Part shown: positions 7,005 through 62,757 of the stretch, piece after piece
Layout of the letters: every line of letters begins with the position of its first letter
Numbering within the stretch: the stretch's first letter is position 1
Assembly: GCA_020343615.1 (NCBI GenBank)
Contig: CP070803.1
Span: forward strand, 143,686 to 207,685
Origin: Candidatus Woesearchaeota archaeon
GTDB taxonomy: Archaea > Nanobdellota > Nanobdellia > UBA10117 > GCA-020343615
DNA length: 64,000 nucleotides
Reading direction: 5' to 3'
Position numbers and translations under genes: made by a program
The notes under the pieces: generated by a model
Told to the model about the DNA's origin: nothing
Seen by the model: the letters and a program-made list of their open reading frames with translations, nothing else
The model's database searches: none

Positions 7005-7121
7005 CGTTTACAATCACTACTCACTGAAAAATATATAAAATTTCTGCTTAGAAGAGAATAGCTGGGGTGAAGAACTTAACTACAATCATTTTTATTCAAC
7101 AGCTCTAATTAATTCTTAGAG

Positions 7122-8264
7122 GTGGTACTTATGAGTTCAAACAATGCTAGCTTTAGCATCTTAAAAGAAACTGAACCTAAAAATGAATTATTCTTGGAGG
7201 CTGCGGAGAAACATCTAACAAAACTAGAAACAATTAAAGAAAATTTAGGAGGAGTTGGTGAAGGATTCGTACAACATTGGATGGATAATTTTAGTGAAGT
7301 AGGCTCTCCTTTGGTTATAAACTTGGATCACAATGCATCTGACGAAAACAACCTTGAAGAATATATTTCAAAATCTGAAGAAGTTACAGAACAATTAGAA
7401 GATATAGTAAGAAAAACTGCAGGTCATACTGCTGCTTATAAGATGAACAGTCAGTCTATGCTTACTTTCTTAGTAGCAAGAAAACCTAGATTTGTTCCAG
7501 AGGCTAAAAAAATATATCGTGATGAATGTGAGGATAAATTCGGTATTGCGATAGATCCTGTTTTCTGGATTGATGAAAAAATAAGAGACATTCCTTCAAC
7601 TAGTTATCAAGTAGGAAGATCAATATATCTTCTAGATTTCGATGCAATACATTGTATGCCTCAAATAGGTCCAGATGTTGCTGGAGCCCTACAAATAGCT
7701 GCGAGTGAATTGGGAAACAAAGGAGTTGTTCATGTTATTAATATGACGCATGAAGGTTACAAGTACGTAAAAAAGAATTACTTTAAGGATGAAAATGAAA
7801 CTGTTGAGCTGCTAAGAAAGAATGCATTAGGAAACTTAGAGTTTGAAGTAGATATAGGTAAAAAAAGAGAAAAAGTTAATCTAAGAACGACCGGATCAAT
7901 AGAACCGGCGAACAGGCCTTATGAAATTTTTAAGTCAATGGAAACTTATGGAGACAATGTTATGATTATCTCAATAGGTATAGGTCCGCAAGGGGCATTG
8001 CCTGGTTGTGCTTTATATGGAGGTGCTACGTGTGAGGGTATCGGAAGATTCATGTATTTAACTAAAGGAGAATTTGATCTTAAAAACATAAAAAGTAAAT
8101 CGAGGGCCTGCAAAAGAAGCCAGCTTTTAGCTCTTGATGCAAAGTATAACTCTAAACCTTATCCGTTAGATAATATACTTAGCGAGTTAAAAGATTTTAA
8201 TCCTAAATTAAAAGAAGAAACAAAATTGGGCTTATATAGAGTATATAGTGCAATGATTAAGTAG
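7122..8264 (+). CDS. Divergent OMP-decarboxylase-family-like protein (hypothetical), 380 aa
   Basis: Contains GIAIDP and a C-terminal IGIGPQGALPG segment resembling the GIDP and PG(I/V)GxQGG motifs of type-2 OMP decarboxylases. The canonical DxKxxDI catalytic motif is not conserved (DFDAIH). Sits next to the pyrimidine gene cluster. Confidence 0.45.
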   Translation: MVLMSSNNASFSILKETEPKNELFLEAAEKHLTKLETIKENLGGVGEGFVQHWMDNFSEVGSPLVINLDHNASDENNLEEYISKSEEVTEQLEDIVRKTAGHTAAYKMNSQSMLTFLVARKPRFVPEAKKIYRDECEDKFGIAIDPVFWIDEKIRDIPSTSYQVGRSIYLLDFDAIHCMPQIGPDVAGALQIAASELGNKGVVHVINMTHEGYKYVKKNYFKDENETVELLRKNALGNLEFEVDIGKKREKVNLRTTGSIEPANRPYEIFKSMETYGDNVMIISIGIGPQGALPGCALYGGATCEGIGRFMYLTKGEFDLKNIKSKSRACKRSQLLALDAKYNSKPYPLDNILSELKDFNPKLKEETKLGLYRVYSAMIK

Positions 8265-18171: not shown

Positions 18172-18223
18172 TGTACTTTAGAATTGGTATTAATTATATT
18201 AAAACGTTGCTAAAAAGTGCATA

Positions 18224-18322
18224 TGCAGGAGGCAGGGTTTGAACCTGCGAAGGCACTAAGCCACGTGGTTTCTCATAAGAAGAACTTGAGCCACGCCCTT
18301 TTGACCACTCAGGCACTCCTGC
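18224..18322 (-). tRNA. tRNA-Leu(CAA) with a 15-nt intron at the canonical 37/38 position
   Basis: Hand-folded as acceptor GCAGGAG/CTCCTGC, anticodon stem CGTGG/CCACG, loop CTCAAG-[TTCTTCTTATGAGAA]-A, a long variable arm (GGC-TTAGT-GCC) and T-arm GCAGG-TTCAAAC-CCTGC. Confidence 0.7.
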
Positions 18323-18365
18323 ATAAATAATACTATTCTAAAAATGCATATAAAAAAGTTTAGAA

Positions 18366-20899: not shown

Positions 20900-21160
20900 T
20901 CACTTTAACTGTATTACTTGAAAACCGTATTTATATATATCTTCTTTTTTCCAGAATTCACAATCTTTAGTTTTTAGAACAAAGGATACTTCTTTCTTTA
21001 ATTCTCTGCCAGTATATTCTTTTGTTTTAGGGTCCCATTCTTTGAGTAGTAGAATATCGCCCTCCTTACAATCAAAATCTGCTAACCTAACATCAAAATT
21101 CTTTTTACCTTCTTTTACAAGTTCAAATAATTCAGGCCAAGCTTTCTTTTTTATTATCAT
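20900..21160 (-). CDS. Small PUA/ASCH-like beta-barrel protein (hypothetical)
   Basis: 86 aa with a pattern (WPELFELVKEGKK.FDVRL....KEGDILLLKEWD) reminiscent of ASCH/PUA-like domains. Low confidence. Confidence 0.35.
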   Translation of the reverse strand: MIIKKKAWPELFELVKEGKKNFDVRLADFDCKEGDILLLKEWDPKTKEYTGRELKKEVSFVLKTKDCEFWKKEDIYKYGFQVIQLK

Positions 21161-21710
21161 CTAATTTGTACTCCCAACCGGGTTCCCACTCTTTAGGTTG
21201 TTTTAAGCGCCAGTCTTCTCTGATTGCTTGTTCCCAGGTTTTCCCTTTAAGTATCACATCTAGTGCTAATTGTGGAGTTCTATGAGCTACTATTGCAGTA
21301 TTTTTTTTAGGATATTTTTCCAATAAGTCGCTTAGAAAGCTACGTACTCTTTTTTCTACATCCTTATAGCTTTCTCCATTAGGGAAAGGTTCTTCGATTT
21401 TATTAAAATCTATAGAATAAATTTCTTTTGAACTGCGTCTTTCTAGATCTCCGTAATTACACTCTCTTAATCTTTTATCTTGAATAATCGGAATTCCTCT
21501 TTTTTTGAAGGTTAATTCAGCTGAGTCTATTGCTCTCTTTAGATCTGAACAGAAAACAACATCAAATTGTTTATATTTAATTAATCCTTCTAATTTAATC
21601 GATTGTTTTTTCCCTAAATTTGATAATTCGGCAGGAGACCATCCTGTAGCTAGATTCTTTTTATTATCTTTAGTGGTTCCGTGCACAAAGTAAGTGATAT
21701 TAACTACCAT
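21132..21710 (-). CDS. Histidine phosphatase superfamily (phosphoglycerate mutase-like) protein
   Basis: A VHGTT motif (RHG-type phospho-His motif) near the N-terminus, and a conserved His later (AIVAHRT). The start was trimmed to the Met at 21710 because the longer ORF runs through the tRNA-Glu gene. Confidence 0.6.
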   Translation of the reverse strand: MVVNITYFVHGTTKDNKKNLATGWSPAELSNLGKKQSIKLEGLIKYKQFDVVFCSDLKRAIDSAELTFKKRGIPIIQDKRLRECNYGDLERRSSKEIYSIDFNKIEEPFPNGESYKDVEKRVRSFLSDLLEKYPKKNTAIVAHRTPQLALDVILKGKTWEQAIREDWRLKQPKEWEPGWEYKLDDNKKESLA

Positions 21711-21721
21711 ATTAACATAAA

Positions 21722-21828
21722 TGCCCCCGACGGGATTCGAACCCGTGTCCATGGCTCGAAAGGCCATAATGACTTGCCCTCCTTTCAATTTCTCGAAAAA
21801 GAGTTTGGCCGGACTACACCACAGGGGC
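21722..21828 (-). tRNA. tRNA-Glu(TTC) with an intron of about 33 nt at a non-canonical position in the D-loop/D-stem
   Basis: Hand-folded as acceptor GCCCCTG/CGGGGGC, anticodon arm ATGGC-CTTTCGA-GCCAT, variable loop GGAC and T-arm ACGGG-TTCGAAT-CCCGT. The 5' part TGGTGTAGTCCGGCCAA...CATT matches an archaeal tRNA-Glu D-arm only after removing an internal insert. Confidence 0.6.
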
Positions 21829-21880
21829 ATTAAAGTTACTATTATTTATCGGGTTTTTAAATGTTTTGAAAAGCAAAAAG

Positions 21881-30684: not shown

Positions 30685-32769
30685 TTATTCTTCCTCGTCT
30701 TCAAGTAGTTCTCTTATTTTTTTTACTAATTTTTTCTTCTTTTTCTTTTTCTTTTTTTCTTCTTTAACAGGTTCTTCCTCTGCCTCCTCCTCTTCTTCCT
30801 CTTCTTCCGGTTCTTCTTTTTTCTTAATATTCGATTTTTTTGGTGTTTCTTTAGTTCCTTGCCAAAGTAAGATTAATATCAATATAACTATTATCGCTCC
30901 AACTATGTATTTCCAATTATCTTTTATTATAGAGATTCCTGTAACTCCTGAAAATGCTCCAGTTATTTTGTCGCCTGTTGAAGACAGTGCTTCGGTTATT
31001 CTAGATAAAATACCTTCTTCCTCGTCTTCAGTTACTTCTGATTCATTTACTTCTTCTTCAACTTCTTCCATGTCTTCCTCTTCTCCGACGCTCTCAATGT
31101 CAACTCCTTTCCCGACCTCCACAACATTAACTTCAATCGCCTCTGATGCTTGAATTGTTCCTTCTTCTAATCTCGCTGAAACAGATAATGTGTAATGGTC
31201 TCTTTCGGCTTCTTCTGGAATTGCAATGTATAAATACGCTACATCTGTTTCTCCAGCCTCAACAGTTACTGTTGATGGATTTAGCTGAGCAAAGGAAGTA
31301 CCTGCTCCTGAAATTTCTAAAGAATAGGTTGCTTCTTCTTTACCTTTATTTTCTATATTTATTGGAATTAATGCTCCTTCACCTATAGCAATATCTATTT
31401 CATCTAATTCTGCTGATAATGCTATAGCGAAGCAAATATCTTTACTAATTACTTCGAGTTCTAGAGTATCTTCACCAGAAGTTTCACTTGGTTCTTGTGA
31501 TTTGGCTATTACTTTAATATTATACGTATCGACTGTTTCTGGGGCATCTACTATAAGACTTAGTGTTTCGCTTTCCCCTTCGTCAAGTTCTACAAAGTTT
31601 TTATCTAATCTAGCCCACTCCGGGCCTTCGATAAAGATACTATACGGTTCTTTGAATTTTCCTAAATTTGTTAAAGATACTTCATAAGTTTTTGAACTTT
31701 GAGCACAAATCGTGTCTTGATTAGCAGCTAATTTTAATTCTGTAATAAAACAAGGTCTTATTGTTATGTCTATTTCCTTCTTCTGAGATACCTTTCCAGT
31801 TTCACTTTCAGCGTTTATCTCTATACTAAAGTCTCCAGTTTCATAGTAATCTGGAAAAATTGTTAAATTTACTACTTCTTCGTCTCCTTCTGCTATGAAT
31901 ACTTCAGTATCATCTAAAGTAGCCCAATCAGGTCCTGTAACACTCAGATCGTACGTGTTATCTATGATGCCTTCGTTCTTTATTAAAACAGGTATTTTTG
32001 CATGTGTATGATCACAAAAAGAATAAACATCTTTAGGGGAATCTATAGAGTATTCATAACATTCTTCTATAACTATTTGTATGTCTTTACTACTAACAGC
32101 ATCGCTATCTTCTGAAGATGCTGTTACAGTTAATCCGTATTCTCCTAAATCATCTGGTGGTGCTCTTATTCCGAGTGTAACTTCTTCTTCTTCATTTTTA
32201 TCTAGTCTTAGGGTATCTTGAGATAGAACTGCCCAATCTTCAGCTACTCCACTTAGAGATAAGGTGAAATCTTCAGTATATTCTCCAATATTCTTAATTG
32301 TAAGTTCATAACTTACTAACTCTCCTGGACATGCTGTCTTAGAATCATCATCAACTGTAATTTCTACACCATGACATGGTTCAATTATTATGTCGTAAGA
32401 AAGTTCTTCTTCTCCTGCGCTTCCACCATCTATTTTTATATTCAAATCATAAGCTCCTATTAATGCTTTGCTAGATGGTGTGATCCATACATAAACGCTT
32501 TTAGTTTTTCCAGGTTCTAAAGAGAATCCTGTTGGTGCAGCTACAGCCCATTTTTGAGCGGTGCCGGATAAAGAAACAGTAAAACTTATTGTCTCATCTC
32601 CTTTATTTTCAATAGGTATATTTATTGTTTCTGTGTGTGTTGGACATAATCTTTTTTCTCCACCCATTGCTCCTACTTCGAAGTCTTCTAATGAAAAAGC
32701 AATTGGTGTAATTAATAATAGAACTCCTATAATAAAAAATGGAATTATTTTATTCTTCATTATTATCAA
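30685..32769 (-). CDS. Secreted/cell-surface protein with repeated Ig-like domains, a C-terminal TM anchor and a poly-E/poly-K cytoplasmic tail
   Basis: N-terminal signal/anchor (IIPFFIIGVLLLITPIAFS). About five repeated units of roughly 100 aa (e.g. VSLSGTAQKWAV.., TLSLSGVAEDWAVL.., VTGPDWATL.., FIEGPEWARL..). C-terminal TM (IVGAIIVILILILLW) followed by EEPEEEEEEEEAEEEP...KKKKKKKKK. Confidence 0.6.
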   Translation of the reverse strand: MIIMKNKIIPFFIIGVLLLITPIAFSLEDFEVGAMGGEKRLCPTHTETINIPIENKGDETISFTVSLSGTAQKWAVAAPTGFSLEPGKTKSVYVWITPSSKALIGAYDLNIKIDGGSAGEEELSYDIIIEPCHGVEITVDDDSKTACPGELVSYELTIKNIGEYTEDFTLSLSGVAEDWAVLSQDTLRLDKNEEEEVTLGIRAPPDDLGEYGLTVTASSEDSDAVSSKDIQIVIEECYEYSIDSPKDVYSFCDHTHAKIPVLIKNEGIIDNTYDLSVTGPDWATLDDTEVFIAEGDEEVVNLTIFPDYYETGDFSIEINAESETGKVSQKKEIDITIRPCFITELKLAANQDTICAQSSKTYEVSLTNLGKFKEPYSIFIEGPEWARLDKNFVELDEGESETLSLIVDAPETVDTYNIKVIAKSQEPSETSGEDTLELEVISKDICFAIALSAELDEIDIAIGEGALIPINIENKGKEEATYSLEISGAGTSFAQLNPSTVTVEAGETDVAYLYIAIPEEAERDHYTLSVSARLEEGTIQASEAIEVNVVEVGKGVDIESVGEEEDMEEVEEEVNESEVTEDEEEGILSRITEALSSTGDKITGAFSGVTGISIIKDNWKYIVGAIIVILILILLWQGTKETPKKSNIKKKEEPEEEEEEEEAEEEPVKEEKKKKKKKKKLVKKIRELLEDEEE

Positions 32770-50690: not shown

Positions 50691-51878
50691 ATGCCTGAAA
50701 GTATTCTAAAGAAAGCTGGTGGATTTGTAAAAGACTCTGTTCTACTTTTAAGACCTTTACGTAAAAAAGAAAAATGGGATATTGGGAGATTGGATACATA
50801 TCTTTCTCCGGAAGAATATAGGAAAGTAAAGGGGGCATTAAAACAAGGTAAGGTTAAAATTGAACTATTAAAGTTGGGTTTTTCATTTTTAATCTCTGGA
50901 AAAGATGTTTTGCCTCGCTTAGTTTCTGAAGTTGAGTTTTTTCAAAAAATAAATAACAAGATAGAAAAAAAGTACTATGATAAATTATTTGAAGAATTTT
51001 CTCCACGAGCTTATGATGTTCTATTTCATTATTTGGCTTCAGATGTCATGTATCTCGCTGATCTAAAAAGAGCAGCAATACTTCAGTTATTCACAGAATT
51101 TCCTCTTCATGTTCTCATTATTGGTGAGTCAGATAGTGGAAAGTCTAAAATTCTGAATTCTGTCCGAACATTAGCGCCAAAATCAACTTATGGTATTGGA
51201 TCTTCAATATCTAGCAGCGGTCTAACACTATCTGTACAGGGGAAGAATGTGAAACCTGGTATTCTTCCTAGAGCTGATCAGGGTGTTTGCTGTATTTCTG
51301 AATTAAATCTAATTAAGAAGAATGAACTTTCGCAGCTTGTTTCTGTCATGGATAAAGGTTACATTAAATATGATAAAGGCGGTGCGAGTATTAAAAAAGA
51401 TGCTAGAACTAAAATACTAGCTACAGCTGAGACTAAAAAAGGTGATTTTAAATCATATTCTCTTTCACAGATAAAGAAACAGATACCGTTTAACTCTTCG
51501 TTTTTATCTAAATTTCATTTAATATTCATTACTAAAAAGCCTAGTAAAAATGAATTTAGAATTATTGCTGATACAATCATAGATGAGTCTGTTAAAAAGG
51601 ATATAAGTAAAGATGAAATTGAATTTATTAAACGATATATTGACTATAGTTCTGGAATTAGAGTAAAACTTCCTAAGAAATTAGCTAAACAAGTAGATGA
51701 ATTCGTTGTTGGTTTAAAAGATATGGAAAAAAAGTTACCTTATAACATTTCCTCTAAAACAGTTGAAGGGATTGTTTCCTTAATCAAGGCATCTGCAAGG
51801 TCTGAATTTAGAGGAGAAGTAGAAAATAAGGACTTAGAAAGAGTTTTTTCAATAGTCCGGAGCGCACTTCAAATATAA
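50691..51878 (+). CDS. Short, degenerate MCM-like AAA+ protein (395 aa) lacking the MCM N-terminal domain
   Basis: Walker A IIGESDSGKSKIL. The segment GVCCISELNLIKKNELSQLVSVMDKGYIKYDKGGASIKKDARTKILATAE aligns with the MCM Walker B/sensor/arginine-finger block (GVCCIDEFDKM...AIHEAMEQQTISIAKAGI...SARCSVLAAAN), but the Walker B Asp is replaced by Ser. Confidence 0.5.
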   Translation: MPESILKKAGGFVKDSVLLLRPLRKKEKWDIGRLDTYLSPEEYRKVKGALKQGKVKIELLKLGFSFLISGKDVLPRLVSEVEFFQKINNKIEKKYYDKLFEEFSPRAYDVLFHYLASDVMYLADLKRAAILQLFTEFPLHVLIIGESDSGKSKILNSVRTLAPKSTYGIGSSISSSGLTLSVQGKNVKPGILPRADQGVCCISELNLIKKNELSQLVSVMDKGYIKYDKGGASIKKDARTKILATAETKKGDFKSYSLSQIKKQIPFNSSFLSKFHLIFITKKPSKNEFRIIADTIIDESVKKDISKDEIEFIKRYIDYSSGIRVKLPKKLAKQVDEFVVGLKDMEKKLPYNISSKTVEGIVSLIKASARSEFRGEVENKDLERVFSIVRSALQI

Positions 51879-51913: not shown

Positions 51914-52659
51914 GCCTCGGTAGCTCAGTCGGCAAGAGCGACGGAGGGTGAAAGTTGATATGATACAACTTAATGAACGCGTTGCAGAAGAAACTGGTAT
52001 TCACATTGGTGATGGTAGCATGAGCATATATAACGGTATACCTTGTTATACTGTTGCATGTAATGCTAACAAAGAAAGAGAATACGTTGAAAAATATATA
52101 GCTCCATTAATAAAAGAAGTATATGGAATAAAACCGAAGTTAAGAATGTGGTCAGAAGGAGCATATGGATTTAGGATTGTTTCTAGAGAAGTGATAGAAT
52201 TTAAAAATAAAGAATTGGGTCTTCCATTAGGACCTAAAAAAGAAATAGAAATACCTTTTAAAATAATAAAAAATATGAACTTAGCTAAAAAATGTATACG
52301 TGGACTCTTTGATACAGATGGTTGTGTCTATATTGAAGAAAAGAAAACAGGTCCTTACCCTAGAATAGAATTACACCTAAGTTCAAAAAAAGTAGTAAAG
52401 CAGGTTAGTGAAATATTAAAGGATCTAGGATTAACTTGTTCAATTTGGGAACATAAATATCCTAATAAAAAGAATTGGTCAAACACGTATACAGTGTGTA
52501 CTCGAGGAACAAAAAATTTAAACATTTGGATGAAACAAATAGGATTCAAAAATCCTAAAAACATAAAAAAAGTATTAGCTTTCACCGGTCGAATCTTGTA
52601 TGCCGAAAGGAGTTTGGCCAAGTAAACCGTAGGTCGTGGGTTCGATTCCCACCCGGGGC
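51914..52659 (+). tRNA. tRNA gene (Thr-like D-arm and U73; isotype unresolved) interrupted by an intron of roughly 0.67 kb that encodes a LAGLIDADG endonuclease
   Basis: 5' exon GCCTCGG-TA-GCTC-AGTCGGCAA-GAGC-G-ACGGA.. and 3' exon ..GTAA-ACCGT-AGGTC-GTGGG-TTCGATT-CCCAC-CCGGGGC-T pair into a 7-bp acceptor stem (GCCTCGG/CCGGGGC) with a canonical T-arm. An oligo-T tract follows. I could not define the exact splice junctions or anticodon by hand. Confidence 0.55.
51948..52625 (+). CDS. LAGLIDADG homing endonuclease (double-motif, monomeric type) encoded inside the tRNA intron
   Basis: Two LAGLIDADG motifs: GIHIGDGSMSI and IRGLFDTDGCVYI. The ORF runs from the 5' splice region into the 3' exon, as is typical of intron-encoded HEs. 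Confidence 0.75.
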   Translation: MKVDMIQLNERVAEETGIHIGDGSMSIYNGIPCYTVACNANKEREYVEKYIAPLIKEVYGIKPKLRMWSEGAYGFRIVSREVIEFKNKELGLPLGPKKEIEIPFKIIKNMNLAKKCIRGLFDTDGCVYIEEKKTGPYPRIELHLSSKKVVKQVSEILKDLGLTCSIWEHKYPNKKNWSNTYTVCTRGTKNLNIWMKQIGFKNPKNIKKVLAFTGRILYAERSLAK

Positions 52660-52749
52660 TTTTTATAGTATTTTAAAAATAAAGGATATGTTCCTAAATC
52701 TAAAGAAATAGAAAGATTTTTTAAGGCTACTAAAATCTGAAGATGTAGT

Positions 52750-52877
52750 GGGCCGGTGGTCTAGCTGGTTAACTCTTCCAGAACTTTTGTGGGAGAGGCC
52801 AAATGACGCAGCCCTTACATGTTCTTAAAAAGGGCTAAGATAGGCTGAGGTCGGGAGTTCGAATCTCCCCTGGCCCA
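52750..52877 (+). tRNA. tRNA-Val(TAC) with two introns: a 22-nt canonical 37/38 intron and an intron of about 33 nt in the D-loop
   Basis: Hand-folded as acceptor GGGCCGG/CTGGCCC, anticodon stem CAGCC/GGCTG with loop CTTACA-[TGTTCTTAAAAAGGGCTAAGAT]-A, and T-arm GGGAG-TTCGAAT-CTCCC. The D-arm GTCT...TGAC-G closes only if an internal insert of about 33 nt is removed. Confidence 0.65.
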
Positions 52878-53245: not shown

Positions 53246-56200
53246 CTAATCGCTTAAAGGAAGATAATCCGTGTTAGCAGAACAGTTGGAAATGATTCGG
53301 GTGTGCATTAAATCTGTGTTATTGTACCATGAAATTGACACATCTGAATCTGAAGTTGAATCTACTAGTCTTCCTTTCTTTACTGCTAAGTTTCTTCCAT
53401 TAGGATATCCTAACCAAGTAGAACCTGCATTTGCTAATTTTACACATGACCAACTACCTGCAGAATTATAACAGTATCTTAAATCATCATTTGTAGCATC
53501 ATAATGAGATATATATACAACATCATTGGAGTCTATTGCTATGCTTGTATCCCATCCAACGTCACCAGTGGTTTCTACATTCTCGCAGGTCCAAGAACCT
53601 CCAGAGTTGTTGCAGTATGATAGTGAACCATTATTCGAAGATACGTGGACAACATCATTGGAGTCTATTGCTATGCTAGTATGTTTACCACCATCTCCTA
53701 TTTGCTTGCAAGTCCAGGTTCCTCCAGAGTTGTTGCAGTATCTTAAATCATCATTACCAGCATCAGTATGAGAGATATGAACTACATTATTGGAATCTAT
53801 TGCTATGCTTGAACAGTCTCCGACCATACCTCCTAGGTCTACATTCTCGCAGGTCCAAGAACCTCCAGAGTTGTTGCAGTATCCTAACGAATAAACTACA
53901 GTAGCATTTTTGTGAGATATATGGACAACATCATTGGAGTCTATTGCTATGCTTGAAAATTCTCCGACAACACCATTAGTTGCTACATTATCGCAAGTCC
54001 AGGTTCCTCCAGAGTTGTTGCAGTATCCTAGATTACCTCCGGTTTCATTATAATATGATATATGAACAACATTAGTAGAGTCTATGGCTATGCTTGAATC
54101 GTATCCGACATTACCAGTAGTTTTTAAGTTCTTACATTCCCAATTTCCGTATGTTCCGTTACAGTACCCTAAATCATCATTTGTATCATTAAAGTAAGAT
54201 ATATGAATCATTCCGTTATAGTCTATTGCTATGCTTGAATACCTTCCTGTATCATTTTTTGACTCTACTGTTTCTGTACTACTTCCTAGCTGACACGCTC
54301 TGTCATTATACACATCATAAGCCTCATCACAGAAGCCATCATTATCATCATCGGTACAGTCATAATAATATCCGTCTCCAGAACCATTAATCCAAACATT
54401 ACCTCCTATATTGGTTCCAGAACCATAAATCCTATTTCCTGTTTTGTTTGTTGTATTAAAGTAATTAGGAGGGTTTGGGGGAGTTCCAGTAAAGCGTACA
54501 TTATCATAAGTTCCAGAATTATTTAGTAGACAATTGTATATTTGATTGTATTCAGGATAATCCGAACCACTTGGATCGAAATAGATTCCAGCCAAAGAAT
54601 TGCCTTTTATTGTTGAATTAGCTATAATATTATTGTCCGAATTGGAAGATAACCTAACTCCATAACTATTTGAATTGGTAATACTCTCTGAAATAATATT
54701 AGAATTTGAGTTATATAAAAAAATTCCATGTTGTGAATTTGAATTTGCAGTTACGTTTATGAAGTTATTGGAGTCTGAAGAATACATTTGAATTCCATAA
54801 CTATTTGAATTTGCGGTTATATTTGTGAAGTTATTGGAGTCTGAAGAAGACATATAAATCCCTACATATGATGAATATGAAGTTATATTAATAAATGTAT
54901 TGGAATTAGAATACATTAACATTATGTACTCATTATTTGAGTTATTTATATTTTCAAAATGTGCTCCATCTGTTTGAGCTATAATAATACCATTATTATC
55001 TATACTATCAGAACCTCTTATTGTTATATTATTTAAGTAAGAGTTACTTGCATTACATAAAATTATATGACTTATATTACCCTCCCAGTTTTGGATATTC
55101 ACAGTATCTTTATAGTACTTAATTGGTCTGTTCCCTGAACCTGTTATGTTTTCTATATGATTTTCACAATGATTATCTGTAGTAGTAGAAACGTATAAAT
55201 CCAGTTCGTTTTCTAAGAGTTTTGAATTAGTAATAGAACTACTATATGAATTTCGCAGATAAAATCCATATTGATTTGAATTTGCAGTTATATTTGTGAT
55301 ATTGTTGTAATCTGACATTATATAGACTCCATGTTGTGAATTTGAATTTGCAGTTACGTTTATGAAGTTACTGGAATCTGAATAAATAAAATAAATTCCT
55401 CGCCAATTTGAATTTGTGATTGTATCTTTAATAGTATTTTTGTCAGATGCACTAGTACTATAAATTCCATTAAAAAAGTCTGTGATTTTACAATTTAATA
55501 CAGTATTATTATCAGAACCTCCATTTGAATTATTTAACCAAATTCCATAATCTGTTGTTCCTGAATCATCTCCAGTAATATTATGCCCTTGACAGTCAAA
55601 TGTTACATCATCTGTTCCGTTAAAGTCTATACATCTTCCAGTTGTGGAGATATTATCAACCAAATAAATAGTATCTCCTGAACTTGCTTGACCAATCTCT
55701 GCGGTGCAGTTATCACAACTATAACAAAGAGCTCCTGCTAATTCAATAGTACAGGTAGCAGAGCAGCCATCTCCCCCTGTAGTACCTCCATCGTCACATT
55801 CTTCTCCACATTCTACTACATCATTTCCACAGAATTGGTCTAAACTGCAATCTCCATTACATCCTGGGTAAGGATCACAATCTACATTATTACCATCATC
55901 ACATTGCTCATCCCCTTCAGGATTATTATCACCACATATAGTAAGAAATACTACTTCAGTATCATATTCTCCTGTAGCTGATGTTGCTGATGAAAAATGA
56001 ATAGTATAGAAATATGTGGTTGACGCCTTTATATTACAAATAAAAGGATTTATTCGTATATATAAGGATACTGTTCCTCTAGCACTTAAATATTTTTCAG
56101 AGATATTCGCTTCAAAGGCTCCACCTGGTGAGAGATATTCGCTTTGACAAACTACTTCTCCACTTGGTTTATATATCTCTAACAACATATTTGACTCATT

Positions 56201-56440
56201 TAGTTTCATTCTTCTACTTCCTTTGTTTTTTATGTCTACTCTTAAGACATTATTTTTATACGACTCTGATAGAATTACAGGATTATATGATGTTAATGTT
56301 GTTGTTATGTCTCTTATTGCTTCCACTTCTCTTTCAGATGGTTGTATAGTCTTAACATAAAACAGAATTGATATAGATATTAATACTGTGAATATTGCTA
56401 GGATGATAATAGAGAGTATAGGGGTTAATCCTTTTTTCAT
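53246..56440 (-). CDS. Giant (1064 aa) membrane-anchored surface protein: Cys-rich module, right-handed parallel beta-helix repeats, and seven C-terminal propeller-like repeats of about 42 aa
   Basis: N-terminal anchor (LTPILSIIILAIFTVLISISILF); a Cys-rich DDGNNVDCDPYPGCNGDC..CGEECDDGG module; PbH1-like repeats (NITANSNSQHGVYI / NITANSNQYGFYL / NITANSNSYGIQM...); then 7x [SSIAIDSNDVVHISHxDAxNDDLRYCNNSGG(S/T)W(T/S)C] repeats. Confidence 0.7.
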   Translation of the reverse strand: MKKGLTPILSIIILAIFTVLISISILFYVKTIQPSEREVEAIRDITTTLTSYNPVILSESYKNNVLRVDIKNKGSRRMKLNESNMLLEIYKPSGEVVCQSEYLSPGGAFEANISEKYLSARGTVSLYIRINPFICNIKASTTYFYTIHFSSATSATGEYDTEVVFLTICGDNNPEGDEQCDDGNNVDCDPYPGCNGDCSLDQFCGNDVVECGEECDDGGTTGGDGCSATCTIELAGALCYSCDNCTAEIGQASSGDTIYLVDNISTTGRCIDFNGTDDVTFDCQGHNITGDDSGTTDYGIWLNNSNGGSDNNTVLNCKITDFFNGIYSTSASDKNTIKDTITNSNWRGIYFIYSDSSNFINVTANSNSQHGVYIMSDYNNITNITANSNQYGFYLRNSYSSSITNSKLLENELDLYVSTTTDNHCENHIENITGSGNRPIKYYKDTVNIQNWEGNISHIILCNASNSYLNNITIRGSDSIDNNGIIIAQTDGAHFENINNSNNEYIMLMYSNSNTFINITSYSSYVGIYMSSSDSNNFTNITANSNSYGIQMYSSDSNNFINVTANSNSQHGIFLYNSNSNIISESITNSNSYGVRLSSNSDNNIIANSTIKGNSLAGIYFDPSGSDYPEYNQIYNCLLNNSGTYDNVRFTGTPPNPPNYFNTTNKTGNRIYGSGTNIGGNVWINGSGDGYYYDCTDDDNDGFCDEAYDVYNDRACQLGSSTETVESKNDTGRYSSIAIDYNGMIHISYFNDTNDDLGYCNGTYGNWECKNLKTTGNVGYDSSIAIDSTNVVHISYYNETGGNLGYCNNSGGTWTCDNVATNGVVGEFSSIAIDSNDVVHISHKNATVVYSLGYCNNSGGSWTCENVDLGGMVGDCSSIAIDSNNVVHISHTDAGNDDLRYCNNSGGTWTCKQIGDGGKHTSIAIDSNDVVHVSSNNGSLSYCNNSGGSWTCENVETTGDVGWDTSIAIDSNDVVYISHYDATNDDLRYCYNSAGSWSCVKLANAGSTWLGYPNGRNLAVKKGRLVDSTSDSDVSISWYNNTDLMHTRIISNCSANTDYLPLSD

Positions 56441-56481
56441 TAATATTAATTAAAAATATAATAATATATAAATATTAGTTA

Positions 56482-56790
56482 TCACTCTATGACTTCTATT
56501 TCTATGTTAACGTCTTTTGGGATTGGTACTCTCATAATGAGATGCAGTGCTCTTTCATCAGCAGAGATATCAATTAATCTTTTATGAATTCTCATTTCAT
56601 ATCTTTCCCACGTTTCAGAACCCTCTCCATCGGGAGCTCTTCTTACAGGAACTTTTAATTTTTTTGTAGGTAAATTAATGGGTCCCTTGTAAGCTACGCC
56701 TACTTTTTTAGCTATGTCTACAATTTGAGAGCATATGCTATCTACTTTCTTTACTTCAGTGCTGTATAGGTTTATTCTTGCCTTTGGCAT
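56482..56790 (-). CDS. rpsJ: 30S ribosomal protein S10 (uS10)
   Basis: [50 protein letters not shown]...HKRLIDI matches uS10. Start placed at the MPKARI Met. Confidence 0.85.
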
Positions 56791-56888
56791 AGTAAGAATA
56801 AGTGAAATCAATCCCTTTAAAAAGCTTTAGTTGAACATATTTTTGTATTAGCAACCTTTTAAAGTATTAATTATTAATATATAACATA

Positions 56889-57227
56889 ATGGCTTGGTTT
56901 CATAAAAGTTTAAAGGATATGAAAGTTGCTATTGAGAAAGAAGACTGGAAGGAAGTTATCAAAATATTAAAACAGCATAATTCTCCCCGTGAAGATAGAA
57001 GAATAAGAAGTGATATTGGTGAAATAAGCCACACAATATCTGATTATCGCGAGCATATTCAACAGATATATGCAGCAATATATCAATATGCTGAAGGGAA
57101 AAGAACTTACGTAGAAAAATATGAGAAAGATCATATGCTACTAAAAGTCAATGCAGCTATTCGGTGTGCACTAAAATTTGAAGAAGTTATAAAACACCTT
57201 ATTAAAGAAGGGAAGTTTCTAGAATAA
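56889..57227 (+). CDS. Hypothetical small helical protein (112 aa)
   Basis: ORF only. Sits immediately upstream of the 1408-aa surface protein gene on the same strand. Confidence 0.4.
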   Translation: MAWFHKSLKDMKVAIEKEDWKEVIKILKQHNSPREDRRIRSDIGEISHTISDYREHIQQIYAAIYQYAEGKRTYVEKYEKDHMLLKVNAAIRCALKFEEVIKHLIKEGKFLE

Positions 57228-57258
57228 TTATTTAAGATTAGAACTGCTATATTATATA

Positions 57259-60200
57259 TTGATGTATCGTAGAGCTAACTTCAGTGTATTTATACTTGTA
57301 TCTATATTTATCTTTATACTTTTACTTCCATCTTTTTTTATACTCTTAAAATTTGATGGTTTTACATTATATCAAAGATTTCAAGAATATGAACCATGGA
57401 TTAGTATTACGGGTGTTACTGTTGCTGAAGATGTTATGATTATTAAAAAAAATTTTGAAGAGCCATTCTTATTTCCTATAACTTTAGAAAATCAGGAATT
57501 TATGGTGGTAGAACTGACAAACTGTATCTCTGTTGGTGAAGTCGGTGAACCAAGCCTTCCAGTATGTCCTGTTCATATTTTAATTTCGCAAAGTAAGGTA
57601 ATATCTAATGTTGATGTGGATTATTTTGATGAAACTAGGATAGATTATGACTTATCTAATAAACCAATAGTTCCTGCCCAAAAAGAAATTCCTATTAGTT
57701 GTGAAGATGTGCCTGACTTCGCCTTGAATCAGGAAATTTATAATTCGGATCAACCCGTCCCAGAACTAATTTATGAAAACAAGGGTACTGGGCTTATGGT
57801 TGGTTTTAACATCTTGACGATAAATTTGAATCCAGTTAGATACATACCTAAAAATGGAGAATTATATTATTATCCTAAAATGGAGATAAGTGTTACTTTA
57901 GCAGACGGGTTTGGTGCTGTTAGTGAACAAGAGAACAAATTTTTAAGATTAAAAGAAAGTGATGTTGATCGTGTTAGTTCTTTGATAGAAAACCCTTCCA
58001 CTATTTCTTCTTATTCTGTGCCTGTTGAATTTGGAACATTGGATGCTCCTCTGAATGGAAGTTGTACTTGTGATCCTACTAAAACATATGAATATGTGAT
58101 AATAACTGATGAGTCTCTATTAAATTCTAGTGGCTACAATTACAGTTGGTATGATTTAATAAATCACCGGAGAAACTATAGTGGTTTAAATGGAACAATA
58201 GTAACTGTACAACAAATTGAGAATTGTTCTGATTATCAAAACAATACTTATCCTTTCAATGATTCTGCTCATAGTATACGTGAATTCATTAAAGATGCTT
58301 ATCAAAATTGGGGTACTGAATACGTTGTATTAGGTGGGAAGTGGAGAGATGACACCCCTGCTGAAAAAATGGTTCAATATCGTTTATTCACAGATATTTA
58401 TGAAACGGGTACTTATGATACTATGCCTTGTGACTTGTACTACAGCAATCTTGACGGTGATTGGTGGTATTCTAATTATAGTGTATGGGGTGGCGGTAAG
58501 AACAGTCCAGTTAATGATAAGTTCTCAGAGATTTATGTAGGTCGTATAACTGCTTACGATACTGAACATGTTTCAAATGCTGTACGTAAAATAATTTGGT
58601 ATGATATTAACAATCATAGTGAGGAATGGTTAGTAACTGTTACATTTGCTGGTGCTAATCTAGGTTGGGCTGTCACTTCAAAACAATACATGGAAGAATT
58701 ACGTATAGGTAACGGATCGTATTCTGAAAATATTGGTTTTGAAGAATGGAACTCTAAACATTCATATTATCCATTTTATACGTTAGAAAATAGATATTAT
58801 CATGCTGATGATACGTGGAGTGATTTCTTAGAGTCTATAGAAAATGATACTAGTTCTATTGTAAATCATATCGGACATTCGAGTTGGAATACTCCTTTTA
58901 GTCTTACTAATTGGCAATTTAGAAATAATACTTTGCCCTTTTTTGGTTACTCACAAGGTTGTCTGGCGGGTAGATTTTCTAGTGGTTTCTCTGGTTGTGA
59001 ACAAACGATGTGCAGACATCCTGAAAAACACGCCTTTGCTGTAGTTCTGAACACAGGATACGGTTATGGTAGTTTTAGTTCTACTCACGGCGCGAGTCAG
59101 CAACTGCATAAGATATTTTGGGCTTATTTTTTTAATGAAGCAGAAAATAATTTAAGTGAGTGGGAATTAGGAAGAGCTCAGTCCTATTCTAAAGATGAAT
59201 TCTCTGCATATATTGATTCTAATCATGCAAAATGTTATGTGTGGTATAGTTCACATTTATTTGGCGATCCTGCACAAAAGCTAGAAATTGCTAGTGTAAT
59301 AAAATCGAATGGTGAATCTTGTTCTTACGAATATGAATGCCTGTCTGGATACTGTGAAGATAGAGTTTGTTGTTCATCTTCATGCGGTGTTTGTCAAGCA
59401 TGTAATATAAATGGTAGTAAAGGTAATTGTTCTAATTACACACAAGGTTCTGACCCAGATAATGAGTGCTCTACAGCTGAGTGTGGTATCGGATACTGTA
59501 ACGGTTTTGGTACTTGTGAAGTATATAGTGATGGTCTAAGACATAATTGTAGTAGTTGTTATTATTGTACCGACTTGGATGAGAGTTGTGATTTAGTACC
59601 TGATGGACAAGATCCTAACAATAACTGCGCTGGAGGAAATGGCACCTCAAATGGTTGTGCGGGAGATTACTGCGACGGTTCTGGCTCCTGTCAAATTATT
59701 AGTTCTGGGGAAGGTAACTGCCCTATTTGTACATTATGTCTAGATAATGATACTGAATGTGAATATTACTCTAATAACACCCAAGATAATGTGGGTAATT
59801 TAACTTGTTTTGGTATTTGTAAGAAATGTGATGGTCTAGGTCAGTGTATCAACCAAACCGCTGGAGAGGATATATTTGACCAATGTGATGCTAATCTAGA
59901 ATGCCATATTGGTATCTGTAATGGTCTTGGAGAATGTGATGTCTATTCTAATGGTGAAAAAGGCTCTTGTGGACCTTGTAAGTATTGTAATGATAGTGAC
60001 TCTAATTGTGAATATGTTCCTTCTGGGCAAGACTTATTTAGTGAGTGTGTTGGTTTGCAGTGTGATGGAGACGCTATAACTCCATATTATTGGGGTTGGG
60101 ACTCATTAACATGTTACTATAGTTCAAATATCTTTTCTAGAGATCACTATTGTGACGGTTCTGGCTCTTGTTATGCTGCTGAAGATTTATGTCCTTCACA

Positions 60201-61485
60201 AGGAAAGGATGGCTCTACGAATATTACTTGTAATTGTGCTGAAGCACTAACTGGTTGTAATGGAACTGTTGTTGGAAGCTGTCTAAATTGTGCTCCTCTG
60301 AATAATTCCGCCCCAACAGCCCCTATCCTTTTGTATCCTGCAGATGAAACTAATAATACTAATAATTCTGTAGATTTTGATTGGGATGATTCTATAGATA
60401 TAGATGGGGATAATATCTCCTATTATTTAGCAATAAATTCGTCGGTAAACTCTACTCAAATTACTTATAGTGTTATGGAATCAAGTTATTCTTCATATTC
60501 TACTATTGATAACGTAACATATTATTGGAGAGTAAAAGCTAGTGATGGTTTAGATAACAGTTCTTGGTCATCTACTTATAAATTTATAGAAATAATTGAA
60601 GTAGAAGAAGAACCTGAAGAGGAAGAAGATCAGACTCCTAGCGGAGGCAGCGGCTCTTCAGGAGGAGGTGGAGGTGGTAGTCCCTCTCCTATTCTCAGTA
60701 GTGCTTCAACAATAACCCCGCCCTCTATTAATTACGACTTATCTGAAACAAATGAAGAAGAGATTAAAGAAGTTGTTAAGTCTAAGCTTAGTGAAATAAG
60801 CAGCAACACTAAAGAAGTTTACAAAGATGTTTCAGTTGATGTGTCTGTTAATCATCCTAGCTCTGAAAGTACCTCTCTTGATTTTAGTTTTAAGTATGGT
60901 AAAGGTACGCCTCTAAAAAAAGTGATGATATTCATTGAAGTTCCTAAATCCTTTGCTGAATCTGCAGAAGATATAACTTTTGAGTCTAGTGTCCCTTATA
61001 GTAAAATGGAAGTTGTTGAAAATGATCCTGTTTATTATTTCTACTATGAAAATCTGGAATCTGAGAATATATCTTATTCTTTCCATAATAATGAATATAG
61101 TATAGGAAGCAAGGTCATTGAAGATGTAAGTCAACCATGGGTTTTCTTTGAAACTGAAGAAGAAGTTGTTCCAGAATGTGGTAATAATGTAATAGAAAAA
61201 GGGGAAGAATGTGATAGTGTTAGTGGACTAATTGAAGGTTATAGATGCTCTGCTGAATGCAAACTAGTTCCTATCCTTCAATGCATTGATGATGGGGATT
61301 GTACTCAAGAAGAAACAGAATTAGGTGAGTGTAATGACTGTTTAATTAGTACTCCTGCACCTACTAGTGCTTATGTTATATTATATCAAAAGTGGTTTGT
61401 TGTATTACTTATTATCTTTATAATATGTACTCTCATATTAGGACTTAAACTAGAAATTAAGAATAAGAAAAAAAGGAAGAAATAG
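57259..61485 (+). CDS. Giant (1408 aa) surface protein: N-terminal anchor, putative clan-CD (gingipain/C25-like) cysteine peptidase domain, Cys-rich EGF-like repeats, FN3 domain, Gly/Ser linker, and a C-terminal TM anchor with a basic tail
   Basis: N-terminal TM (FSVFILVSIFIFILLLPSFFILL). Candidate His/Cys dyad: VNHIGHSSW ... FFGYSQGCLAG, about 27 aa apart. Repeated CxxC..C..NC..GxGxCE modules. FN3-like APTAPILLYPAD...YYWRVKASDG. SGGSGSSGGGGGGSPSP linker. C-terminal WFVVLLIIFIICTLILGL-KLEIKNKKKRKK. Confidence 0.7.
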   Translation: MMYRRANFSVFILVSIFIFILLLPSFFILLKFDGFTLYQRFQEYEPWISITGVTVAEDVMIIKKNFEEPFLFPITLENQEFMVVELTNCISVGEVGEPSLPVCPVHILISQSKVISNVDVDYFDETRIDYDLSNKPIVPAQKEIPISCEDVPDFALNQEIYNSDQPVPELIYENKGTGLMVGFNILTINLNPVRYIPKNGELYYYPKMEISVTLADGFGAVSEQENKFLRLKESDVDRVSSLIENPSTISSYSVPVEFGTLDAPLNGSCTCDPTKTYEYVIITDESLLNSSGYNYSWYDLINHRRNYSGLNGTIVTVQQIENCSDYQNNTYPFNDSAHSIREFIKDAYQNWGTEYVVLGGKWRDDTPAEKMVQYRLFTDIYETGTYDTMPCDLYYSNLDGDWWYSNYSVWGGGKNSPVNDKFSEIYVGRITAYDTEHVSNAVRKIIWYDINNHSEEWLVTVTFAGANLGWAVTSKQYMEELRIGNGSYSENIGFEEWNSKHSYYPFYTLENRYYHADDTWSDFLESIENDTSSIVNHIGHSSWNTPFSLTNWQFRNNTLPFFGYSQGCLAGRFSSGFSGCEQTMCRHPEKHAFAVVLNTGYGYGSFSSTHGASQQLHKIFWAYFFNEAENNLSEWELGRAQSYSKDEFSAYIDSNHAKCYVWYSSHLFGDPAQKLEIASVIKSNGESCSYEYECLSGYCEDRVCCSSSCGVCQACNINGSKGNCSNYTQGSDPDNECSTAECGIGYCNGFGTCEVYSDGLRHNCSSCYYCTDLDESCDLVPDGQDPNNNCAGGNGTSNGCAGDYCDGSGSCQIISSGEGNCPICTLCLDNDTECEYYSNNTQDNVGNLTCFGICKKCDGLGQCINQTAGEDIFDQCDANLECHIGICNGLGECDVYSNGEKGSCGPCKYCNDSDSNCEYVPSGQDLFSECVGLQCDGDAITPYYWGWDSLTCYYSSNIFSRDHYCDGSGSCYAAEDLCPSQGKDGSTNITCNCAEALTGCNGTVVGSCLNCAPLNNSAPTAPILLYPADETNNTNNSVDFDWDDSIDIDGDNISYYLAINSSVNSTQITYSVMESSYSSYSTIDNVTYYWRVKASDGLDNSSWSSTYKFIEIIEVEEEPEEEEDQTPSGGSGSSGGGGGGSPSPILSSASTITPPSINYDLSETNEEEIKEVVKSKLSEISSNTKEVYKDVSVDVSVNHPSSESTSLDFSFKYGKGTPLKKVMIFIEVPKSFAESAEDITFESSVPYSKMEVVENDPVYYFYYENLESENISYSFHNNEYSIGSKVIEDVSQPWVFFETEEEVVPECGNNVIEKGEECDSVSGLIEGYRCSAECKLVPILQCIDDGDCTQEETELGECNDCLISTPAPTSAYVILYQKWFVVLLIIFIICTLILGLKLEIKNKKKRKK

Positions 61486-61488
61486 GTT

Positions 61489-62757
61489 TTATTTAGGTAC
61501 AACTTTAATACATCTTCCTGCAGCTACTGTTCTACCCATGTCTCTGATAGCTAACTTTGACATTTGTGGTACTTTGTCAGCTTCTTCTATGATTAATGGT
61601 CTTGTTGGTTCAACAGTAATTATTGCTGCGTCTCCAGGTTTAAGGAAATCTGGGTTTTCTTGTACAGTTGCTCCAGTTCTTGGATCAATCTTCTTATCTA
61701 GCTTCTTTATTGTACAAGATACCTGTGCAGTATTTACATGGAATACTGGACAGTAACCTGCGGTAACAACAGTTGGGTGACTTAGCACAATTATTTGTGC
61801 TTGGAATTCCTTAACTGGTTTAGGTGGGTTGTCAGCAGGTCCTAGAACATCTCCTCTTCTAACGTCTTCTTTACCTATACCTCTTACATTAATTCCAACG
61901 TTATCTCCTGGTTCTGCTTGCTGCATTTGTTCATGATGCATTTCTATGGATTTAATTTCTCCAGGTTTTCCAGAAGGCATTACTACAACTTTTTGGTTTA
62001 CTTTCATTATACCAGTTTCGATTCTACCTACTGGAACTGCGCCTATACCTTTAATTGTGTAAACATCTTGAATTGGCATTCTTAATGGTAAGTTTGTTGG
62101 TTTTTCTCCAGGCTTGAAGTCATCTAGTGCTTCAAGTAGGATTGGACCCGTATACCAACTCATGTTCTCTGATTTCTTAGCTACATTGTCTCCTTTTAAT
62201 GCAGCTGTAGGTATAAATTTAACTTCGTCTGCTTTATATCCAACGCTACCTAGTAATTTGACCATATCATCTTTTACTGCATTGAATTTTCCTTGATCAT
62301 ATTTTACTATATCCATTTTTGTGATAGCAATCATTATCTGAGGAATTCCCAGAGTCTTTGCTAGGAATAAGTGCTCCCTAGTCTGCTCCATAACTCCATC
62401 ATTAGCAGCTACACAAAGAACTGCAGCGTCTGCTTGTGATGTTCCTGTAATCATGTTTTTAATGAAATCTTTGTGTCCTGGTGCATCAATGATTGTAAAG
62501 TAATTTTTTTGAGTTTCAAATCTCTTATAGGCTAGGTTAATTGTAACTCCTCTTTCTCTTTCTTCTTTTACTTTATCCATTACGAAAGCGAATTCAAAGC
62601 CTGCTTTACCTAACTCTTGTGCTTCTTTTTTGTGCTTCTCTAACTCTGTTGCTTCAATTGACCCTGTGTCGAATAGTAATCTACCTACTGTTGTACTCTT
62701 TCCATGGTCTACATGACCTATGAATACTAAATTTATGTGTGGTTTTTTGTCAGCCAT
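61489..62757 (-). CDS. tuf: Elongation factor 1-alpha (aEF-1alpha)
   Basis: G1-G4 GTPase motifs (GHVDHGKST; DAPGH; NKMD) and overall EF-1alpha architecture. Confidence 0.95.

Follow-up and report, generated by a model that had tools for sequence, protein, structure and literature searches.

How did two giant surface-protein genes come to lie between and beside the translation genes tuf and rpsJ of a DPANN archaeon? We addressed this question in a 64,000-nucleotide stretch (hereafter the window; 33% guanine plus cytosine, GC) of a 919,475-bp contig, an NCBI metagenome-assembled genome (MAG) of a Candidatus Woesearchaeota archaeon. Here tuf, which encodes elongation factor EF-1alpha, and rpsJ, which encodes ribosomal protein uS10, are split by a reverse-oriented block holding a small open reading frame (ORF), orf112, and the gene for a predicted membrane-anchored cysteine peptidase of the gingipain family (C25); a second surface-protein gene, for a beta-helix and beta-propeller protein of 1064 amino acids (aa), follows rpsJ. 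Taken as a whole, the locus is probably a clade-level, vertically inherited variant of gene order, and neither a recent insertion nor an operon fusion, and the placement of the surface genes beside translation genes most likely reflects the fluid, neutral gene order of the group rather than selection.

A preliminary description of this DNA had placed the genes in the order fusA, tuf, reverse block (orf112 and the C25 gene), rpsJ and 1064-aa gene, and all coordinates agree with ours:

62830 to >64000, minus strand: fusA (EF-2), C-terminal part, running past the window end; TIGR00490 (aEF-2), 442 bits
61489 to 62757, minus strand: tuf (EF-1alpha), 422 aa; TIGR00483, 664 bits
57259 to 61485, plus strand: C25 peptidase gene, 1408 aa with the TTG start at 57259
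56889 to 57227, plus strand: orf112, 112 aa, divergent from rpsJ
56482 to 56790, minus strand: rpsJ (uS10), 102 aa; TIGR01046, 146.5 bits
53246 to 56440, minus strand: gene of the 1064-aa surface protein, starting 41 bp after rpsJ

The family assignments of fusA, tuf and rpsJ by Pfam and TIGR models are unambiguous, with the TIGR00490 match spanning model positions 374-718 and Pfam EFG_III, EFG_IV and EFG_C also matching the fusA product. NCBI starts the C25 gene at the ATG at 57262, which gives 1407 aa (57262 to 61485; P0001, identical to JSW73_01220), and the gene runs towards tuf, the two stop codons being 3 bp apart. We take the archaeal streptomycin-operon-like cluster of the older literature to run S12-S7-EF-2-EF-1alpha-S10, as in Methanococcus vannielii. 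As in that cluster, fusA and tuf are adjacent and co-oriented in the window (72 bp apart) and rpsJ still lies downstream of tuf on the same strand, but fusA, tuf and rpsJ are not contiguous, as 4.7 kb with two opposite-strand genes stands between tuf and rpsJ. In related DPANN loci the cluster is often eroded anyway, with tuf usually followed by a run of T.

The age of the arrangement can be read from two relatives. In L081 (JGI 3300041075), the C25 orthologue (P0002, 74% aa identity) converges on tuf with the identical 3-bp spacing, and in L162 (Logan SRR21285571) the order is C25 gene, 91 bp, rpsJ (94% aa identity), ~40 bp, beta-helix gene, and then MCM and ThiI-like genes as in the window. 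The two contigs are 72-88% identical to the window at the nucleotide level and their synonymous divergence (dS) from it is 0.5-1.4, with the C25 and beta-helix proteins 55-68% identical between window and L162. Because the junctions are shared at a dS of ~0.8-1.4, the arrangement predates the divergence of the window from L081 and L162. The ratio of nonsynonymous divergence (dN) to dS was 0.18 for the C25 gene (against L081) and 0.25 for the beta-helix gene (against L162), compared with 0.06 for rpsJ and ~0.13 for the MCM and ThiI-like genes, and the dN of both surface genes (0.14-0.35, versus 0.03-0.10 for their neighbours) indicates faster protein evolution; being under purifying selection, the two are real, constrained genes that evolve faster than the genes around them. 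Across the C25/tuf end (61366 to 61690), dS to L081 falls from ~0.8 over the C25 gene to 0.27 in its last 37 codons and 0.07 in the adjacent 65 tuf codons, a drop that could come from codon-bias constraint in tuf or from a recombination boundary.

Composition and mobility signatures point the same way. GC at third codon positions (GC3; 0.215 and 0.205 for the two surface genes) and synonymous-codon divergence (0.071 and 0.063) are like those of other long window genes, no flanking direct or inverted repeats were found around the surface genes, and the Pfam/TIGR scans returned no integrase or transposase at the locus; an ISLre2 match of 15.7 bits against a cut-off of 200 was discarded as noise. 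None of the marks of a genomic island or mobile element (mobility gene, flanking repeats, deviating composition) is thus present. The recent insertion that the preliminary description had offered as one explanation is not supported, given this native composition, the lack of repeats and mobility genes and the junctions common to L081 and L162, and the deviation in GC or codon usage for which it had suggested looking across the locus did not appear, both surface genes being typical for the window. For the two large genes, then, a recent insertion is already largely refuted.

To place the split among relatives we compared tuf loci, 80 each from GTDB species representatives and from metagenomes, all of Woesearchaeota/Nanoarchaeota type, in which the best EF-1alpha identity to the window among the species representatives was 74%. 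The genome and metagenome sets probably have loci in common, which makes the counts less than fully independent. By position of rpsJ, the loci fell out as follows:

113 loci (75% of ~150 informative): rpsJ at most 300 bp downstream of tuf, same strand
11 loci: rpsJ 300-1000 bp from tuf
14 loci: rpsJ more than 1 kb from tuf, same strand
1 locus: rpsJ inverted relative to tuf
11 loci: flank of at least 0.5 kb available, no rpsJ
10 loci: uninformative (contig ends)

In this group, then, the premise that EF-2, EF-1alpha and S10 genes ordinarily sit together is only partly true, and fusA lies directly upstream of tuf in only 58 of 129 related loci. Where tuf and rpsJ are apart, the cargo in the gap is heterogeneous (kinases, transporters, radical-SAM-like and toxin-antitoxin-like products, judged from ORF translations alone), and a C25 or beta-helix homologue was found in none of the 160 loci. 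Large ORFs near tuf in other loci turned out to be for the most part RNR or LeuRS genes or, probably, long fusA genes; the few surface proteins among them were unrelated, and we rejected a recurring association of such genes with tuf. Two large ORFs, at 5900 to 9481 of L056 (1193 aa) and 252 to 3968 of L115 (1238 aa), lie directly upstream of tuf on its strand, where fusA is expected, and may be intein-containing EF-2 genes. On the other side of the locus, MCM, ThiI-like and pyrBI genes were not near rpsJ in other relatives, so that no ancestral right-hand neighbour of rpsJ can be defined. Judged from these gene orders, the tuf-rpsJ split is a derived state specific to one clade, and its 4.7-kb gap is the large end of a common phenomenon; relatives do share the window's arrangement, at the level of that clade (L081 and L162), and the split is still derived with respect to most of the others. 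Since the linkage of EF-2, EF-1alpha and S10 is already loose in the group, an interruption is a poor sign of recent insertion.

What the two genes encode bears on what the arrangement could be for. By sequence, the 1407-aa protein is a predicted membrane-anchored C25 cysteine peptidase, with these parts:

57439 to 57933, plus strand: pro-domain, aa 61-225; PF08126 Propeptide_C25, 45.9 bits, cut-off 22
58093 to 59283, plus strand: catalytic domain, aa 279-675; PF01364 Peptidase_C25, 147.7 bits, cut-off 23
59299 to 60291, plus strand: Cys-rich stalk of ~5 tandem 8-Cys repeats of ~57-60 aa each, from Cys spacing
60292 to 60573, plus strand: immunoglobulin (Ig)/FN3-like domain; homologous P0256 repeats match Big_13, fn3 and N-terminal DUF4962
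61366 to 61482, plus strand: C-terminal transmembrane helix (hydrophobic segment aa 1369-1387 and beyond) and Lys/Arg-rich tail KNKKKRKK

The candidate catalytic dyad is His540 in 'NHIGHSS' and Cys568 in 'SQGCLAG'. In an alignment with 26 homologues (27 sequences), C568 is invariant, H540 is at least 90% conserved and both His of 'NHIGHSS' are nearly invariant. A phmmer search of both giant proteins against the PDB gave no match, and the gingipains were reached only by a profile built from the 27-sequence alignment, which matched the pro-domains of Kgp (5mun, 1.3e-19) and RgpB (4ief_A, 6e-8) and the catalytic domain of RgpB (1cvr, E 4e-12). The profile puts H540 and C568 opposite the RgpB motifs 'YTGHGS' and 'DVACVNG', whose 'GHG' and 'aCvnG' cores we take to hold the catalytic His and Cys.

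Downstream of the catalytic domain, the stalk repeats contain C-x2-C-x2-C and C-x-G-x-G-x-C motifs, and all 48 Cys are kept in P0002, the 74% identical homologue. The repeats matched no Pfam family, permissive thresholds included, and AlphaFold run on stalk plus Ig-like domain with a two-sequence alignment reached a predicted local distance difference test score (pLDDT) of only 31. An exhaustive HMMER search with aa 681-1408 gave 3385 matches at E<=1e-3, of which P0002 was the sole full-length one. In giant metagenomic proteins of 1.3-5 thousand residues (P0248, P0249, P0258-P0261) the 8-Cys module yields as many as 35-38 matched stretches, and the Ig-like module too recurs many times in such proteins. 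The protein's own Ig/FN3-like segment gives a weak DUF4962 match only, and is followed by a Gly/Ser/Glu linker, a domain that matches nothing in Pfam and, by eye, one 'myxo_disulf'-like Cys repeat.

Compared with the gingipains RgpB and Kgp of Porphyromonas gingivalis (C25; PDB 1cvr, 4ief, 5mun, 4rbm), the protein shares an inhibitory-type pro-domain followed by a caspase-like C25 domain, a His/Cys dyad in homologous motifs and, as a prediction for the archaeal protein, the state of a secreted, surface-retained zymogen. It differs in its archaeal host, in a homology seen by profile search only, in a C-terminal transmembrane helix and Lys-rich tail where gingipains have a type IX secretion system (T9SS) sorting domain, and in 8-Cys repeats and an Ig-like domain where gingipains carry haemagglutinin/adhesin domains. 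Pfam/TIGR scans of the protein found no T9SS C-terminal domain, Por_Secre_tail or PGF-CTERM, and the PorU model NF033707 scored 34 bits against a cut-off of 420; a T9SS sorting domain marks a bacterial mode of secretion, not membership of the C25 family.

The nearer likeness is to C25 peptidases of sediment archaea (Thermoprofundales/MBG-D and other Thermoplasmatota), with which the protein shares pro-domain and C25 core at 40-50% identity over the N-terminal half; those mostly end in PKD or FN3 tails, whereas the window protein has a Cys-rich stalk and a membrane anchor, and its host is a DPANN Woesearchaeote, of a group reported to have few extracellular peptidases (PMC8359207). Named C25 relatives come from Thermoplasmatota-type MAGs, and the contigs of the closest relatives carry many further genes for secreted peptidases (S8, M14, C1 and another C25). 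An archaeon of 52.6% GC has a C25 half that matches the window protein's at 45% identity, while its Topo VI-A and that of the window share only 28%; on these identities and on the Thermoplasmatota-type relatives, the C25 module is probably of older horizontal origin, from a pool of peptide-degrading sediment archaea.

The 1064-aa protein has the domain order pilin-like signal, Ig-like region, Cys-rich acidic repeats, parallel beta-helix and beta-propeller. Its N-terminus ('MKKG-LTPILSIIILAIFTVLISI') resembles an archaeal class III (prepilin-type) signal, and that of its same-genome paralogue P0113 (41% full-length identity) matches Arch_flagellin (PF01917) with 30.5 bits against a cut-off of 29.5. 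The Cys-rich acidic repeats match TIGR02232 myxo_disulf_rpt (39.7 bits), and PF05048 NosD (73.8 bits) and PF13229 Beta_helix (56.8 bits) identify the parallel beta-helix. We considered and rejected a NosD orthologue (TIGR04247, 24.5 bits against a cut-off of 300), since the protein shares the generic fold only. The propeller corresponds to one repeat array:

53249 to 54301, minus strand: C-terminal array of ~7 repeats of 44-48 aa ('SSIAIDSN.VVHISH...YCNNSGG.W.C'); direct repeat families D1, D2 and D5

Pfam gave nothing usable for these repeats at permissive thresholds. AlphaFold modelled the array as a beta-propeller (pLDDT 74, predicted template-modelling score 0.81), and the top PDB matches to the model were the seven-bladed, fucose-binding Photorhabdus lectins PLL and PHL (E 5e-14, template-modelling (TM) score 0.67-0.76), a similarity at the level of the fold only, with 11-14% identity. 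The architecture is modular, because the L162 orthologue, of 595 aa, has no propeller. The window protein and P0113 are ~30-40% identical in the N-terminal half, 64% in the propeller and nearly identical over the last ~55 aa (53246 to 53420), a gradient that suggests recent recombination or gene conversion in the C-terminal part of the paralogues.

In the cultivated DPANN archaeon Nanobdella, large surface proteins of pectin-lyase-like beta-helix type and of protease-like type have been proposed to target the host envelope (bioRxiv 10.1101/2023.10.27.564410). Likened by description, the window protein resembles DPANN beta-helix surface proteins of ~0.9-1.3 thousand residues in its many N-glycosylation sequons, its parallel beta-helix and a proposed action on the glycosylated host envelope; it adds to these a pilin-like N-terminus, Cys-rich acidic repeats and a lectin-like propeller, and has a full-length paralogue in its own genome.

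Composition sets both proteins apart from the rest of the window. N-glycosylation sequons number 3.5 per 100 aa in the beta-helix protein and 2.6 in the C25 protein, against ~0.4 in other window proteins; Cys makes up 3.6% and 4.8%, against ~1%; and net charge is -72 and -122, against mostly ~-20 to +50. The preliminary description had taken both for membrane-anchored, multi-domain surface proteins, which their hydrophobic anchors, sequons, Cys content and acidity bear out, with the refinement that one of them is predicted to be a C25 enzyme. A further acidic surface-type protein of 694 aa lies elsewhere in the window (30685 to 32769, minus strand), with a net charge of -91, hydrophobic segments at both the N- and C-terminus and FixG_C/NPCBM-associated Ig-like domains. 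Otherwise the window holds common housekeeping genes (aminoacyl-tRNA synthetases, Topo VI, Topo I, Rad50/Mre11, pyrBI, CDC48, MCM and others).

From these parts we propose how the two proteins might work. The peptidase would be exported through its N-terminal hydrophobic signal as a zymogen, with the pro-domain keeping the His540/Cys568 site inactive until it is removed, as in gingipains, and would be tethered by the C-terminal helix with its Lys-rich tail and held off the membrane on a glycosylated stalk of Cys-rich repeats and the Ig-like domain. The second protein would be anchored or assembled through its type-IV-pilin-like N-terminus and would present a pectate-lyase-like beta-helix and a lectin-like propeller that may bind, and possibly cut, glycans. 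Together they would form a surface kit with which an amino-acid-dependent DPANN cell binds glycosylated envelopes or detritus and releases peptides. By analogy, a role in host interaction or in peptide scavenging is plausible.

Transcription signals around the genes point towards separate expression. The relevant elements are:

56791 to 56888, no strand assigned: divergent promoter-like region with two TATA-like boxes (for rpsJ and orf112), the rpsJ-side box 'CAACTAAAGCTTTTTAAAG' being identical in L162; putative promoter
57228 to 57261, plus strand: C25 promoter-like spacer 'AATAATTATTTAAGATTAGA...', kept before the C25 gene in L162, which has no orf112; putative promoter
56441 to 56481, minus strand: rpsJ/beta-helix spacer of 41 bp with a 'TTTATATA' box ~30 nt before the ATG, box and spacing kept in L162; putative promoter
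61468 to 61474, minus strand: T7 tract 14-20 nt past the tuf stop, read from the sequence and kept in L081; putative terminator

For rpsJ, the beta-helix gene and the C25 gene alike, a TATA-like box ~30 nt ahead of the start codon is thus conserved between window and L162, and the T7 tract is the antisense of the C25 Lys-tail codons. Runs of at least five T follow tuf in 132 of 158 related loci, in 92 of the 113 with rpsJ adjacent and 40 of the 45 in which the pair is interrupted; their presence in both classes suggests that in this group the two genes often belong to separate units. Lying on the opposite strand and converging on tuf, the C25 gene cannot share a transcript with it, and co-transcription is in general not required, given a conserved TATA box for each gene and the oligo-T after tuf, although read-through from rpsJ into the beta-helix gene is possible. 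We would accordingly expect transcription of each gene from its own TATA-box promoter, with tuf ending at the oligo-T tract that overlaps the end of the C25 gene. A scan for bacterial-type promoters and terminators was set aside, its counts equalling shuffled expectation and its models being inapplicable to archaea.

Several points weigh against this combined reading of gene order and function. Homology and composition underlie every functional step; promoters and terminator are called from sequence motifs of a kind common in a genome of 33% GC; the N-terminus of the 1064-aa protein matches no Pfam pilin or archaellin model even at E<1, and a Pfam scan of the window ORFs of 150 aa or longer turned up neither a prepilin peptidase nor a pilus ATPase. 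Promiscuous matching among beta-propellers loosens the comparison with PLL and PHL. The nearest C25 homologues mostly bear no taxonomic label, and the gene contexts of two contigs place them only loosely, so that any direction or age given to a transfer is tentative. Selection on the arrangement is another possible source of the conserved spacings of the C25 and beta-helix genes around rpsJ, which are seen in two or three genomes.

Of the alternatives, the one that fares best keeps the genomics and changes the biology: the proteins might serve free-living scavenging of detrital protein or glycoprotein, or be structural envelope components, and have nothing to do with host contact. We regard this as possible, if less likely than not being so. 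The secreted peptidases crowding the contigs of the nearest C25 relatives favour it. A C-terminal membrane tether, however, would keep the enzyme on the cell, a pilin-like signal and a lectin-like propeller fit attachment, and DPANN archaea with genomes of ~0.9 Mb are generally host-dependent. On the side of scavenging, Thermoprofundales encode and express extracellular C25 peptidases that are interpreted as degraders of detrital protein (PMC6461988), and labelled protein was taken up by Woesearchaeota in incubations (PMC8359207). The choice between host envelopes and detrital protein as targets is one that sequence cannot decide.

An improbable alternative is that selection has kept the surface genes by rpsJ and tuf for expression in step with growth-rate-controlled translation genes, perhaps by way of transcription that runs on from rpsJ into the beta-helix gene and of a bidirectional promoter region shared by rpsJ and the C25 gene. 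It would explain why the ~40-bp rpsJ/beta-helix spacing and the divergent spacer of 91-98 bp are kept between window and L162 while the proteins have drifted to 55-68% identity, and L162 has no strong oligo-T tract after rpsJ. Yet the C25 gene runs on the opposite strand towards tuf, each gene has its own conserved TATA-like box, and the oligo-T after tuf occurs in most relatives with or without an adjacent rpsJ. Large surface-protein genes near tuf are, moreover, rare and unrelated in other loci, and an arrangement common to three genomes of a single clade is explained by shared ancestry.

More speculative still, and in our view quite unlikely, is a stronger form in which the C25 gene, rpsJ and the gene of the beta-helix/lectin protein would be a conserved 'surface attack module' of the clade, its expression tied to ribosome synthesis and the C25 Lys-tail codons doubling as the tuf terminator. 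The shared rpsJ promoter region and rpsJ read-through would then deploy envelope-binding and protein-cutting machinery in proportion to growth, and, if true, this reading would give the DPANN archaea a first host-interaction factor of the gingipain type.

Recent horizontal insertion, in which the C25/orf112 block and the beta-helix gene would be a newly acquired island in a translation locus, we consider very unlikely. It draws on the absence of both surface genes near tuf in all 160 related loci, on a C25 domain whose similarity to its counterpart in a distant archaeon exceeds that seen for a housekeeping gene, on tRNA genes and a LAGLIDADG gene ~370 bp past the end of the beta-helix gene, and on orf112, which is missing in L162 and elsewhere in L165. 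Against it, neither GC nor GC3 nor synonymous codon usage sets the genes apart from the rest of the window, integrase, transposase and flanking repeats are lacking, and the junctions are anciently shared. The small gene is a different matter. The product of orf112, a small helical ORFan with no Pfam/TIGR family match, has only two homologues besides itself in a word-index search of 5.8 billion proteins, which can miss distant relatives, and the 380-bp segment that holds it (56843 to 57222) is absent from L162. Of its distant homologues, the only one on a long contig lies at 10001 to 10336 of L165, between Lon and SerRS, in a neighbourhood syntenic with the start of the window (Lon_C at 5 to 541, SerRS at 1418 to 2707, and two metallophosphoesterases); from this placement, orf112 has changed its place between relatives. 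By its distribution, orf112 alone is likely a recent gain or loss.

An assembly or binning artefact, a chimeric join beside the translation genes of the kind the preliminary description had allowed for, is next to negligible despite the MAG source and the internal repeats of both large genes, since the tuf/C25 junction recurs in the JGI contig and the C25/rpsJ/beta-helix/MCM order in a Logan contig from another sample, with reading frames intact and under purifying selection.

The neighbouring tRNA region merits description in its own right. A tRNA-like gene at 51914 to 52660 (plus strand), which ARAGORN finds only if long introns are permitted, is interrupted by a 675-nt insert holding a whole LAGLIDADG homing-endonuclease ORF (51948 to 52625); its 5' part provides acceptor stem, D-arm and the start of the anticodon stem, its 3' part the 3' strand of the anticodon stem, T-arm and acceptor stem, and the syntenic spot in L162 carries an uninterrupted tRNA-Thr(TGT). 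No single splice junction gives a canonical anticodon loop with U33, so the gene may have a non-canonical intron or be a disrupted pseudogene, and the insert has no group I intron match in Rfam. A tRNA-Val(TAC) homologue at 52750 to 52877 (plus strand), missed by default ARAGORN and by Rfam at gathering score, carries two inserts that the uninterrupted L162 copy does not have, one of ~31 nt in the D-loop region and one of ~22 nt following the anticodon. L162 has a different LAGLIDADG gene at 6630 to 7364 (minus strand), between tRNA-Lys and a tRNA with a 30-nt intron, where the window has tRNA-Lys and tRNA-Ala 3 bp apart (47759/47763), so that LAGLIDADG genes occupy different tRNA loci in the two. 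Intron-containing tRNA genes also occur at 21722 to 21828 and 18223 to 18323 (both minus strand); Rfam gave a 107-nt tRNA match overlapping the 5' end of the ORF at 21132 to 21830, and ARAGORN with introns allowed gave a tRNA-Leu(CAA) with a 15-nt intron. Next to this region, the MCM homologue at 50691 to 51878 (plus strand; 83% identical to its equally long L162 counterpart), with 395 aa and Pfam matches to the AAA+ and lid domains only, is too short for a full N-terminal domain.

For the biology of these archaea, the gene order matters less than the functional reading of the two proteins. If that reading is true, they would be concrete candidates for peptide acquisition, or for the opening of host envelopes, by an amino-acid-dependent DPANN cell. 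Woesearchaeota were the most active taxa in 13C/15N-protein incubations, and their MAGs encoded few extracellular peptidases (PMC8359207); surface proteins of the kind described here could, if the reading holds, help to explain how labelled protein is taken up by Woesearchaeota despite so few such enzymes.

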